The translations under genes were made by a program, and so were the position numbers. From Escherichia coli (lineage in GTDB: Bacteria > Pseudomonadota > Gammaproteobacteria > Enterobacterales > Enterobacteriaceae), in the NCBI RefSeq assembly GCF_041886205.1, contig NZ_CP169029.1: DNA of 64,000 nt, one strand, 5' to 3'. The notes under the pieces are model-generated. The model was not told the DNA's origin, did not search any database, and saw nothing but the letters and a program-made list of their open reading frames with translations. Below, one piece after another: positions 40,728 through 42,515 of this stretch. Position 1 is the first letter of the stretch. Each line of letters opens with the position of its first letter.

Positions 40728-42515
40728 TCAGACAAAATCCTCAAGATGACGACTGATGCTGTTTTCATGGTAACAGGTCACCAGTAATTCACGGGTTGCC
40801 CGGGTGAACGCCACATACAGCACCGGAATCACTTCGGACTCATCCGCAACCCCCGAGTGAACGAAAGAGGCATTGATAACCGCCACATACGGAAACTCCA
40901 GTCCCTTACTGCTCTGGTACGTCAGTAAATGCACCACATCCCTGCGTCGCGAGTATGCCTTCTTGCCTTCCCTGTCAAAGCAGGTGGCAAAAGGTATCCC
41001 GCGCTGTGTCATAACCTCTGTCAGGTGTTTCACTGAAAACTCTGCCGGACACAGCACAGCCATATCACTCCAGTGACCGCACAGGGCATGGCGCTTCTCC
41101 AGCCAGTCTGCAACCTGTCTGGCTTCATCACGTTCAGAAGCACAACGCAGGATTTCCCGCTCTGTGCCCTCTTCACCACCCGCCTGTGGCTGAACGAGCG
41201 GTATTTCACGGTTCTGATGTTTTTCAAAATACTCGCGGGAGAATGCATAAGCAAAGTGCAGAATGCGTTCCGGATTACGATAATTGACCGGCAGGACAGA
41301 AGTGCGTCCCTGCGCCTGAATCCCCACACTGGCCAGAGAAAAGTTCAGAGCCCGCTCCCGCCGGTAAATGGACTGGGCGTCATCGTACATCAGGAGCAAT
41401 GAACGGGATACGTTATCAAACAGACGGGCAATCAGAGCCAGCCAGCGACTGTCAAAATCATGCCCCTCATCCACCAGTACAGCATCATATCCGGTACCGG
41501 TGATTTTCCCGCTGTTCACGGCCTCTTCCAGTGCGCTGAAGCATTTCTCCGGGTAATCCTTTCTGTCAGCCGTCACCTGAATACCGTAACGTTTTATCAT
41601 CGAGGCACACCAGCTGTGAAAATGAGATACCGTAACCCGCGATTTCAGCCCTCTGTCCTCAATGCATTCCCGCAGATAACTGGCCAGCGTAATGTTGTAG
41701 CACAACACCAGTATCTTTCCCGGTGTGGTTTCAGCCAGGTAAAGACAACGGAACAAAAGAATCATGGTTTTTCCGGAACCGGCCACACCATGAATGACTC
41801 GATGCCCGTCACCAATATTTCTGGCCAGAATCTCCTGCTGAATATCCATGATTTTGATTTGTGAGTTCTGTTTCACGGTCACTTCAGGAAACAGATGGGC
41901 GCGCAGAATATCTCTCATCCGGGGTGTCACCCGGGTTCTGAATCCCGTGGTAAACATCCCGGCTATTTTCTGCCGGAATACCTCAGGTAAAACGGACTGC
42001 GTCATTTCATCCTGACAGATTGTCTGTGCTGAAGGAAAAATCTTTTCCACCGCATTCTCATCATTCCCTGCCAGTGCCTTCAGTTGCTGACGGGTAATGC
42101 GGGTAAACACCACACCATACGCCCAGGCCAGGTTCAACCGTCCCTTATACTGACCGTCATTCTGCCGTAAGCACGGGTCTGCAGGTAAGGCATTAACCGT
42201 ATCACAGGCATAACGACGAACCTGCACCAGCGGATTTATTTCTGATTTCAGAATCCCGTCGGTTTCCAGCGTGACCTGCTCCTGGTTCGCCTTACGCAGC
42301 GTGGAAACCGTCCAGTCCTTAACCTCCAGAAATACCAGCCCGTTCTCCGGGTCAATAATGACAAAATCCGGATGCCGGTTTTTTCGTCCCACCGGAATAT
42401 CGTACCAGACAAGGCAGTCATCGTTCAGAAAGCGCTCCAGTCGTAAAGCCACCCTCCTCTCTCCGGGCGTCATTCTCTCCTCAGTGGACGCCGATACATT
42501 TATCAGTTTCGCCAT
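40728..42515 (-). CDS. NERD nuclease-like domain fused to SF1 (UvrD-like) helicase
   Basis: N-terminal NERD-like region (...RHPDFVIIDPENGLVFLEVKDW); Walker A GVAGSGKT; Walker B LVDEGHDF; C-terminal UvrD_C-like YQSSKGLEFPYV...VAFTRA; ATG with SD GGAGAG. Confidence 0.75.
   Translation of the reverse strand: MAKLINVSASTEERMTPGERRVALRLERFLNDDCLVWYDIPVGRKNRHPDFVIIDPENGLVFLEVKDWTVSTLRKANQEQVTLETDGILKSEINPLVQVRRYACDTVNALPADPCLRQNDGQYKGRLNLAWAYGVVFTRITRQQLKALAGNDENAVEKIFPSAQTICQDEMTQSVLPEVFRQKIAGMFTTGFRTRVTPRMRDILRAHLFPEVTVKQNSQIKIMDIQQEILARNIGDGHRVIHGVAGSGKTMILLFRCLYLAETTPGKILVLCYNITLASYLRECIEDRGLKSRVTVSHFHSWCASMIKRYGIQVTADRKDYPEKCFSALEEAVNSGKITGTGYDAVLVDEGHDFDSRWLALIARLFDNVSRSLLLMYDDAQSIYRRERALNFSLASVGIQAQGRTSVLPVNYRNPERILHFAYAFSREYFEKHQNREIPLVQPQAGGEEGTEREILRCASERDEARQVADWLEKRHALCGHWSDMAVLCPAEFSVKHLTEVMTQRGIPFATCFDREGKKAYSRRRDVVHLLTYQSSKGLEFPYVAVINASFVHSGVADESEVIPVLYVAFTRATRELLVTCYHENSISRHLEDFV

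Follow-up and report, generated by a model that had tools for sequence, protein, structure and literature searches.

A NERD nuclease–UvrD-type helicase fusion beside type VI secretion genes in Escherichia coli: a candidate single-gene anti-phage defence

Nhi, in which one polypeptide joins an N-terminal nuclease to a C-terminal SF1 helicase, is a single-protein defence that degrades phage replication intermediates, and its motor belongs to an SF1 subfamily different from that of UvrD and PcrA. Gabija pairs a UvrD-type SF1A motor with a separate DNA endonuclease, the ATPase-TOPRIM protein GajA. SF1 motors are also fused to nucleases in RecB and AddA, which carry their PD-(D/E)xK domain at the C-terminus and act in multi-subunit repair complexes, and in the human Schlafens SLFN11 and SLFN14, in which the N-terminal RNase domain is unrelated to NERD and the SF1 helicase is C-terminal. 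The NERD domain itself is the effector nuclease of several validated systems, namely HEC-02 (bioRxiv 10.1101/2024.01.29.577857), ZwsA (bioRxiv 10.64898/2026.04.06.716636), Mokosh type I and the Nhi-like proteins that carry it (PMC10952713). RTasNERD-Hel and RTasHel are tied to UG/Abi reverse transcriptases and work together with the RT (Mestre et al. 2022, PMC9226505). In addition, a family named C3a187 has been defined by its adjacency to three type III CRISPR-cas loci, without an assigned function (Shah et al. 2018, RNA Biol, PMC6546367).

Here we describe a NERD nuclease–UvrD-like helicase fusion encoded in a 64,000-nucleotide stretch of E. coli DNA (the window, that is, the whole stretch that was analysed). 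Because its family often lies beside known anti-phage genes, we regard it as a credible but unproven candidate for single-gene anti-phage defence. About one in five complete E. coli genomes carry the gene, among them those of the enteroaggregative (EAEC) strains 042 and 55989, and the family extends through hundreds of clusters across Proteobacteria and cyanobacteria; our search of the literature on NERD helicases, defence, T6SS and TagA found no published study or experiment on it. If the family defends, it would add a compact one-protein nuclease-helicase system, a NERD domain with a minimal UvrD-type motor, to the known repertoire, and would provide a one-polypeptide counterpart of Gabija and a simple model of how a helicase-coupled nuclease tells invader from host DNA. 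It would also represent an overlooked gene within the well-studied EAEC sci-1 T6SS cluster, just upstream of tagA. If it does not defend, the family still forms a large uncharacterised group of DNA-processing enzymes.

The fusion protein and its gene

A sequence-only reading of the window had described a 595-aa open reading frame with a strong Shine-Dalgarno sequence, lying between a VasL-like gene and a TssE fragment. The reading frame is real, intact and exactly as described, AGGAGA is present 5 nt from the ATG, and both flanking genes were confirmed by domain or profile matches. The features are as follows.

40728..42515, minus strand: NERD nuclease / UvrD-like SF1A helicase fusion CDS; ATG start, 595 aa plus stop codon (ORF list, Pfam, PADLOC)
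41871..42515, minus strand: N-terminal region, residues 1-215, with the NERD PD-(D/E)xK domain and a conserved linker region (residues 110-215)
40731..41870, minus strand: predicted compact SF1A helicase core, residues 216-595 (Pfam, alignment, AF2)
42521..42526, minus strand: Shine-Dalgarno sequence AGGAGA, 5' of the ATG, read directly from the sequence
39307..40686, minus strand: TagA-like T6SS accessory gene, 459 aa with ImpA_N and VasL domains, downstream of the helicase gene
42803..43078, minus strand: TssE fragment, 91 aa, C-terminal part only (profile positions 60-113 of 133), upstream of the helicase gene
42686..42802, minus strand: two putative terminator-like hairpins, 42802-42759 (20-bp stem) and 42709-42686, between the TssE fragment and the helicase gene (consensus scan only)
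39034..39055, minus strand: putative terminator-like hairpin downstream of the tagA-like gene (consensus scan only)

With 557 representative homologue clusters (50% identity) at E<=1e-30, the gene is far beyond chance. M1 and A2 are kept throughout a 29-sequence family alignment, which favours the 595-aa start over the 581-aa start assigned by NCBI to most E. coli copies. The tagA-like gene begins 41 nt past the helicase stop codon and a consensus scan found no terminator in the gap; given this spacing and the lack of a terminator, the two genes in the window are probably co-transcribed. The hairpin beyond the tagA-like gene is the likely end of this transcription unit, and the two hairpins on the upstream side would insulate the helicase gene from upstream transcription. 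A simple consensus scan of the minus strand from 42516 to 42685 returned no sigma-70 consensus promoter. Farther upstream, the TssE fragment abuts a PTS ascorbate EIIC gene fragment, and the N-terminal part of TssE was lost at that junction, which recurs in other E. coli assemblies.

The proposed fusion of a NERD domain to a complete SF1 helicase is borne out by the Pfam domains and by intact catalytic motifs. NERD (PF08378) was placed at residues 17-108 (i-E 5.4e-10), and UvrD-helicase, AAA_19, UvrD_C and UvrD_C_2 together span residues 226-582. The NERD catalytic residues are D50 and E64-x-K66, accompanied by an NPLxQ motif with Q98; in the 29-sequence alignment D50 is invariant and E64 nearly so, and a by-eye reading finds K66 in 26 sequences, so that the catalytic triad of the PD-(D/E)xK nuclease is, as judged from these residues, intact. 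In the motor, the Q-like motif is Q227/E228 and motif Ia is LVLCYN. Residues invariant or nearly so among the 29 sequences include G243, G246, S247, G248, K249 and T250 of the Walker A motif GVAGSGKT (241-250), D349 and E350 of motif II (VDEGHDF, 347-354), Q381 of motif III (YDDAQSIY), all of N411, Y412, R413 and N414 in motif IV (NYRN, 411-414), K537, G538 and L539 of motif V (SSKGLEF), and Y567, T571, R572 and A573 of motif VI (YVAFTRA). With motifs Q, I, Ia and II-VI invariant or nearly so in the family alignment, and with a two-RecA-domain fold, the SF1A core is complete.

The AF2 model has a pLDDT of 86, with values mostly of 80-95 over residues 1-215. As we read the alignment's motif spacing and the model's secondary structure, the motor lacks a large 2B domain. 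The best Foldseek matches in the PDB were PcrA, UvrD and Rep (E about 1e-16), with SLFN11 and SLFN14 among the top matches, and PcrA and UvrD were also the best PDB sequence matches; neither search detected a close relative among solved structures, the PcrA/UvrD/Rep matches being generic.

Comparison with named systems

The whole protein matches the C3a187 'NERD+UvrD' profile of PADLOC v2 (PDLC01087; representative Dole_0738) at E 6.9e-140, aligning residues 1-594 with profile positions 1-556 of 559, and the N-terminal 214 aa alone match it at E 1.5e-38. This was the sole full-length PADLOC match, the others being partial matches to GajB or DRT-helicase models. The C3a187 name is a label and not a mechanism. 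No cas genes were found around the helicase in the ORF list of the window, in the E. coli loci examined or in the annotated recurrent neighbour families. PADLOC v2 holds C3a187 as an accessory HMM only, with no system built on it. The view that the protein could not be assigned to a named system thus stands, since PADLOC models run against both the whole protein and the N-terminal domain yielded none. Nor did a confident assignment to a housekeeping helicase family emerge, as no UvrD, Rep, PcrA, HelD or RecB equivalog in NCBIfam reaches its cutoff and all 17 matches fall far below theirs (best, PcrA, 64.6 bits versus a cutoff of 911). In RefSeq, the family is currently misnamed '3'-5' exonuclease'.

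Like Nhi and the Nhi-like proteins, it places a nuclease at the N-terminus and an SF1 helicase at the C-terminus of one polypeptide, but its motor is of the UvrD/PcrA type according to Pfam and Foldseek. The description 'Nhi-like' was not upheld, given this UvrD-type motor and the fact that no Nhi model is among the best 25 of 33 PADLOC matches (the remaining 8 have E above 2e-5); the N-terminal 214 aa matched no Nhi or Mokosh model at E<=1, only C3a187 and RTasNERD-Hel. By analogy, Nhi would nevertheless most likely be its functional analogue. With Gabija, it shares the combination of a UvrD-type SF1A motor and a DNA endonuclease for a putative defence, and GajB models were the next-best PADLOC matches (E 9e-20 to 1e-13, partial). 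It differs from Gabija in that its nuclease is a NERD PD-(D/E)xK domain fused in cis, as opposed to a separate GajA, and in that its motor appears, by our reading of alignment and model, to lack the large 2B domain. No gajA-like gene is adjacent in the window or recurs as a partner in 79 homologous loci, and membership of Gabija was rejected on the partial GajB matches and the absence of a GajA gene from the neighbours. RTasNERD-Hel and RTasHel (PADLOC E 1.4e-14 and 1.4e-18, respectively) resemble it in pairing NERD with an SF1 helicase in a defence context; no RT gene was noted beside the helicase in the annotated loci or in the annotated recurrent neighbour families. For RecB/AddA and SLFN11/SLFN14, which likewise fuse an SF1 motor to a nuclease, similarity to the window protein is confined to the motor.

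Distribution, neighbours and the T6SS address

The gene was found in 1047 of 5426 complete E. coli genomes (about 19%) and is full-length in 614; 99 contigs of E. coli assemblies encode exactly the window protein. Among five E. coli alleles, dN/dS is 0.09-0.19, and both domains are under purifying selection; relaxed or diversifying selection, hinted at by identity figures, is ruled out by these ratios. The dS values of 0.09-0.29 among E. coli alleles, which we judge to be above expectation for vertically inherited E. coli genes, indicate horizontal exchange. Copies 92-95% identical reside on IncF plasmids beside RelE/ParE toxin-antitoxin genes and without T6SS genes nearby; its distribution is patchy, with transfer between chromosomes and IncF plasmids. 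In E. coli O157:H7 and JML285 it is disrupted by IS elements, and such broken copies indicate a dispensable gene, as expected of a defence gene and equally of any accessory gene. Two further ideas on its mobility were discarded. A phage origin was rejected after a tblastn search of 50,697 phage records revealed no close phage-encoded homologue (the lone match at E<=1e-10 had 30% coverage and 28.6% identity). An ORF-precise mobile cassette was considered in view of homology to the window that ends a few bases from the start and stop codons, yet this was dropped because the plasmid and 042-type copies have common flanking sequence.

When 832 neighbouring ORFs from 79 homologous loci were clustered, no conserved partner gene appeared, the top family being present in 6 of the 79, in agreement with the 'single-gene' character first ascribed to the module. 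Defence genes recur around members of the family. In Pseudomonas alliivorans, the gene is embedded in a type I R-M operon, with hsdM, hsdS, the gene and hsdR on one strand, and a betaproteobacterial locus combines HsdR/HsdS, PDC-S06, a REase_II-like gene, the helicase gene and AbiEii. PDC-S02 lies at 123-1626 nt in 5 loci, and other nearby defence genes are SoFic and HsdR (4 loci each) and AbiEii (3 loci). A Vibrio harveyi plasmid copy adjoins an N6 DNA methylase and an HNH endonuclease. In E. coli islands, Shango SngABC is located 6 kb from the helicase gene, and in strains 55989 and 042 a PD-Lambda-1-like GIY-YIG gene and a KwaA/KwaB-like (Kiwa-like) pair flank it. Of 22 randomly chosen immediate neighbours, 6 (in 5 of 11 loci) match PADLOC models at E<=1e-8, a count that includes generic domains (kinase, protease) and has no matched control. 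Other settings are ordinary, including a K. pneumoniae chromosomal copy beside fosA, a fixed site on a Ralstonia megaplasmid (114 records) and three metagenomic loci; SbcC is a neighbour in 3 loci, and one plasmid copy has umuDC and a gene for an SOS-response peptidase in its vicinity. Overall, genomic context appears to lean towards a defence role.

The sequence-only reading had taken the gene for an insertion into a decayed T6SS cluster, and comparison with relatives overturns this. The order tssE-helicase-tagA(VasL) is kept in Escherichia, Dryocola, Cedecea and Pantoea, and it occurs in complete-looking T6SS runs of Pantoea vagans, Cedecea neteri, Dryocola clanedunensis and E. coli 042/55989. 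Identity to the window protein in these runs is 59-65% for the helicase, with similar divergence of the flanking T6SS proteins (TssE 75-80%, TssF 60-80%, TagA 36-42%). Helicase and tagA share 23 nt in Pantoea and, across relatives, either overlap or lie at most 157 nt apart. Because the order is conserved and the flanks are similarly diverged, the gene is resident and not inserted, and the T6SS cluster decayed around it; the gene has long been inherited in the slot between tssE and tagA within one enterobacterial T6SS lineage, with no sign of recent insertion. The helicase directly follows tssE in Pantoea and Cedecea, and one small ORF lies between them in Dryocola, which marks the GIY-YIG gene and two small ORFs as additions in the 042-type lineage. 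Loss from the window of the GIY-YIG partner seen in E. coli 042 and 55989 was rejected.

Where E. coli has lost the T6SS core, the helicase gene is usually retained: its 1047 genomes compare with 115 that have the adjacent tssE-tssJ-tssG block, and in WCHEC005215 unrelated genes replace the T6SS side of the helicase. Beyond the window lineage, T6SS neighbours were found in 5 of 93 loci examined, all within the enterobacterial clade, and none was nearby in about 75 homologous loci outside it. A role as a T6SS core or accessory component was rejected as a family trait, as co-occurrence is seen only in this clade.

Proposed function and its alternatives

On balance, we lean towards a self-contained nuclease-helicase that would act as a single-protein defence against invading DNA, whether phage or plasmid. 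In such a system, the ATP-driven motor would load on single-stranded or branched DNA belonging to an element that is replicating or has just been injected, translocate 3'->5', the direction taken by SF1A helicases, and feed the DNA to the fused endonuclease, which would cut it. The invader's replication intermediates might thereby be destroyed; an unrestrained enzyme could instead damage host DNA and lead to abortive infection. Against defence, many homologues occupy ordinary metabolic or core-like neighbourhoods, and defence alone does not account for the tagA linkage in four genera.

An accessory DNA repair or replication-fork helicase-nuclease, RecB/AddA-like or a UvrD paralogue serving host or plasmid DNA, is possible but doubtful. 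It would fit the nearest structures and sequences, which are the repair helicases PcrA, UvrD and Rep, the copies in K. pneumoniae and on the Ralstonia megaplasmid that hold stable, core-like sites, the SbcC neighbours and the plasmid copy near umuDC and the SOS-response peptidase gene. However, the NCBIfam repair equivalogs all score far short of their cutoffs (PcrA about 65 bits versus 911), only about 19% of E. coli genomes carry the gene, IS elements often interrupt it, the allelic dS is judged to indicate horizontal exchange, and embedding in R-M operons and defence islands is unexpected for repair genes. We find it highly improbable that the protein is a T6SS-delivered DNase effector or the gene a decaying, functionless remnant, even though T6SS clusters commonly encode nuclease effectors at their edges and the window gene lies in a degraded cluster. 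As an effector, a 595-aa ATP-dependent helicase fusion would be unusual; its gene has no VgrG, PAAR or adaptor gene associated with it in the loci examined, nor an immunity gene next to it in Pantoea and Cedecea, where tssE and tagA flank it directly. Decay is argued against by the intact ORF, the presence of all motifs and the low dN/dS.

Another reading makes the helicase-nuclease a functional companion of tagA, co-transcribed with it and acting when the T6SS fires, possibly by handling DNA that enters or is damaged in contact-dependent antagonism or by regulating the cluster. This is unlikely as an account of the protein, despite the tssE-helicase-tagA order in four genera, the divergence that parallels the flanking T6SS proteins, the close or overlapping helicase and tagA genes with no terminator in the window gap, and the persistence of both genes intact in the window lineage beside a truncated TssE. 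Against it stand the homologous loci outside the enterobacterial clade and the near-identical IncF plasmid copies, all without T6SS genes nearby, and, within E. coli, the excess of helicase-bearing genomes over those with tssE-tssJ-tssG and the replaced T6SS side in WCHEC005215. Moreover, Pfam shows NERD and helicase domains only, no PAAR, VgrG or adaptor gene is adjacent in the loci examined, and our literature search found no paper connecting NERD helicases with T6SS. It is similarly improbable, we estimate, that helicase and tagA form a conserved two-gene unit that ends one enterobacterial T6SS lineage, with the helicase coupled to T6SS activity. Such a helicase might be an intracellular guard against foreign DNA or DNA damage in contact-dependent warfare, or a T6SS-regulated defence gene, and the helicase-tagA unit would then link anti-MGE immunity to interbacterial antagonism.

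Architecture and family of the fusion protein

The sequence-only reading had described a nuclease–helicase fusion with a complete helicase core, and the ORF call, the Pfam search and a family alignment bear this out (window 40728..42515, minus strand, 595 aa). Pfam placed the NERD domain at residues 17-108 (i-E 5.4e-10), and residues 226-582 were covered by UvrD-helicase, AAA_19, UvrD_C and UvrD_C_2. In an alignment of 29 sequences, comprising the window protein and 28 diverse full-length homologues (27-58% identity), the key catalytic and motif residues listed here were invariant or nearly so, and, as we read the alignment, 26 of the 29 carry K66, which completes the PD...ExK signature.

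Residues invariant or nearly so in the family alignment
Nuclease: D50, E64
Walker A: G243, G246, S247, G248, K249, T250
Motif II: D349, E350
Motif III: Q381
Motif IV: N411, Y412, R413, N414
Motif V: K537, G538, L539
Motif VI: Y567, T571, R572, A573

Conservation of M1 and A2 of the 595-aa form across the family argues that this start is correct; a Shine-Dalgarno motif (AGGAGA) lies 5 nt 5' of the ATG, and most E. coli copies, annotated from a 581-aa start, are probably 14 codons too short. RefSeq names the E. coli homologues '3'-5' exonuclease' and starts them at Met15 (581 aa), for example in strains 55989 (L001 19996-21741) and 042 (L095 4901-6646). The AlphaFold2 model was confident (pLDDT 86, pTM 0.79), and a structure search with it ranked PcrA, UvrD and Rep at the top of the PDB matches, with the nuclease–helicase proteins SLFN11 and SLFN14 also ranking high; a sequence search of solved PDB structures found no close relative. 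The motor is compact, and because only about 120 residues lie between motifs IV and V, we read the large 2B domain as absent.

Scanning the protein against the PADLOC defence HMMs gave a single full-length match, PDLC01087 'C3a187, NERD+UvrD' (E 6.9e-140), a label originating from cluster 187 (representative Dole_0738), which adjoins three type III CRISPR loci (Shah et al. 2018, PMC6546367). The next-best matches, to GajB of Gabija and to DRT reverse transcriptase-associated helicases, were partial. Since the N-terminal 214 aa matched C3a187 and RTasNERD-Hel only, even at E<=1, membership in Nhi, Nhi-like or Mokosh systems by sequence is unsupported; the Nhi-like comparison made earlier is thus not borne out by sequence, and the judgement that no named system could be assigned holds. 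Nor was the protein placed in a housekeeping helicase family, as no NCBIfam model came near its cutoff (PcrA, 65 bits versus 911). NERD is an accepted effector nuclease in HEC-02 (bioRxiv 10.1101/2024.01.29.577857), ZwsA (bioRxiv 10.64898/2026.04.06.716636), Mokosh type I and Nhi-like (PMC10952713), as well as PglW and DndF. The NERD+UvrD architecture differs from that of each named nuclease–helicase system. The family is already recognised bioinformatically, without a system name, and our literature search found no paper testing a NERD+UvrD protein.

Type VI secretion neighbours and decay of the locus

The immediate neighbours of the helicase gene are as first described, a VasL-type gene downstream and a TssE fragment upstream, and the surroundings (31082-38054 and 44590-59919) are a mosaic.

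Features around the helicase gene (window coordinates)
31082-33313: catalase-peroxidase gene
34509-35747: ISL3 transposase gene
36272-38054: IS66 element
39307-40686: TagA-like gene (ImpA_N + VasL, domain search), downstream of the helicase
42803-43078: C-terminal TssE fragment (profile match), upstream of the helicase
42994-43356 (+) and 43078-43100: PTS ascorbate-type EIIC fragment, joined directly to the truncated tssE
48361-58140: probable CdiA, 3259 aa (from size, position and homologous loci, not a family match)
58153-59919: probable CdiB (on the same grounds)

The EIIC/tssE junction marks the rearrangement that removed the remaining T6SS cluster, and several further E. coli assemblies share it (L096-L101). 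The degraded order EIIC fragment, TssE fragment, helicase, tagA, IS66, ISL3, cdiI, katG recurs in other assemblies, which makes the window one representative of a clonal lineage of E. coli. A consensus scan placed two terminator-like hairpins between the TssE fragment and the helicase gene; none lies in the 41-nt helicase–tagA gap, and the next stands 3' of tagA, so a helicase–tagA transcript is plausible. PGAP breaks the tagA-like ORF up into three features marked 'partial'. It does so in JML285 too, where the tagA-like sequence is 100% identical to the uninterrupted 459-aa ORF of the window. Possible orphan toxin/immunity modules are encoded at 44590-47503, where four ORFs were scanned and gave no NCBIfam match.

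The view that the gene was inserted into a decayed T6SS cluster is not sustained, since the order tssE–helicase–tagA is conserved in four genera, beside complete-looking tssM-to-tssE core runs.

Loci with the helicase between tssE and tagA (identity to the window protein)
Pantoea vagans pVag1: 61%; 23-nt overlap with tagA
Cedecea neteri: 65%; tssE immediately 5', tagA abutting or overlapping
Dryocola clanedunensis: 59%; set apart from tssE by one small ORF
E. coli 042, 55989 and A30: in the window's 90%-identity cluster; genes added on both sides

The flanking T6SS proteins have diverged about as much as the helicase (TssE 75-80%, TssF 60-80%, TagA 36-42% identity), which points to co-inheritance with the cluster. 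As read from gene order, the T6SS address is ancestral, with no insertion. The window has the simpler arrangement found in Pantoea and Cedecea; 042-type loci carry an extra 133-aa ORF and a GIY-YIG gene upstream and an extra 101-aa ORF downstream.

Distribution, neighbourhoods and possible function

At E<=1e-30 the family comprises 557 representative clusters (50% identity), and at E<=1e-10 it comprises 2907; a length near 600 aa and end-to-end alignment are typical of its members. It is found in cyanobacteria as well as in gamma- and betaproteobacteria. Homologues occur in 142 plasmid records, including 114 Ralstonia megaplasmids. A tblastn search of 50,697 phage records gave no close homologue, the sole match at E<=1e-10 covering 30% of the protein at 28.6% identity. 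The exact window protein is present on 99 contigs of E. coli assemblies. Among complete E. coli genomes, 1047 of 5426 carry the gene, full-length in 614; the O157:H7 copy is interrupted by IS66, and JML285 has the window's allele split by IS100. Across five E. coli alleles dN/dS is 0.09-0.19 in both domains, and the gene, by this measure, is under purifying selection; dS (0.09-0.29) is judged to be above expectation for vertical descent within E. coli.

Clustering 832 neighbouring ORFs from 79 loci revealed no conserved partner, the commonest neighbour family occurring in 6 of the 79. Defence genes recur, namely PDC-S02 (5 loci, 123-1626 nt from the homologue), SoFic and type I HsdR (4 loci each) and AbiEii (3 loci), alongside histidine kinases, TonB-dependent receptors, c-di-GMP enzymes and SbcC. 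In Pseudomonas alliivorans (L071 7145-15325), hsdM–hsdS–helicase–hsdR form a type I R-M operon of four genes on one strand, and a betaproteobacterial homologue lies amid HsdR, HsdS, PDC-S06, a REase_II-like gene and AbiEii. Random immediate neighbours matched PADLOC at E<=1e-8 in 6 of 22 cases (5 of 11 loci). The sample has no matched control set beside it, and generic protease or kinase domains account for two of these six matches. E. coli WCHEC005215 (L094 225-6049) encodes complete Shango SngA, SngB and SngC 6 kb from the helicase (E 7e-100 to 3.5e-278); this Shango adjoins ibrAB/perC, on an island without T6SS core genes. In 042-type loci, the GIY-YIG protein immediately upstream (400-414 aa; L001 21977-23179, L095 3421-4665) matches PD-Lambda-1 in its C-terminal half only (E 4.3e-88), and on the far side of tagA is a KwaA/KwaB-like pair (E 3e-10 and 2.4e-12); in these strains the sci-1 T6SS cluster thus has an end that is a defence island as well.

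The best-supported reading, towards which we lean on balance, is an autonomous nuclease–helicase acting on foreign DNA, a functional analogue of Gabija or Nhi in a single polypeptide. Its SF1A motor would move 3'->5' along single-stranded or branched DNA and would hand the DNA over to the fused PD-(D/E)xK endonuclease. Against a defence context count copies in ordinary neighbourhoods, namely on the K. pneumoniae chromosome next to fosA, on the Ralstonia megaplasmid and at three metagenomic loci. An accessory repair function is rather unlikely; the structural matches to UvrD, PcrA and Rep speak for it, and the housekeeping family scores, far under cutoff, speak against it.

A role coupled to the T6SS is more doubtful still. 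The conserved tssE–helicase–tagA order, including that of the EAEC model strain 042, is the one unexpected point, which no tested explanation covers fully; distribution across genomes indicates that the gene is independent of the T6SS. At the approximately 75 more distant loci, no T6SS genes lie near the homologue; IncF plasmid copies (92-95% identical) lie beside RelE/ParE toxin–antitoxin genes, a DUF6710 gene and sodC; WCHEC005215 has an integrase fragment and unrelated genes, the grp operon among them, in place of the T6SS side; and by megablast, which strongly diverged T6SS alleles would escape, the tssE–tssJ–tssG block occurs in only 115 E. coli genomes versus 1047 with the helicase. That the protein is an effector or a remnant is highly improbable; the low dN/dS speaks against decay.

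Other defence-like ORFs in the window

A second UvrD-like helicase ORF (61621-63993, minus strand, 790 aa) starts 7 nt from the window end and may be N-terminally incomplete. It matches GajB-type PADLOC models weakly (best E 4.9e-10), as it does RecB, bears no positional relation to the NERD–UvrD gene and could be a further helicase for defence or repair. PADLOC also matched a 352-aa protein (12733-13791, plus strand) to mad3 (E 1.9e-30) and mad8 (E 7e-11), models of the MADS methylation-associated defence system. Large ORFs adjoin this gene (6000-13791), those at 10655-12733 and 8243-9559 having no PADLOC match, and the region, from these profile matches, may hold a defence or modification locus in partial or variant form.
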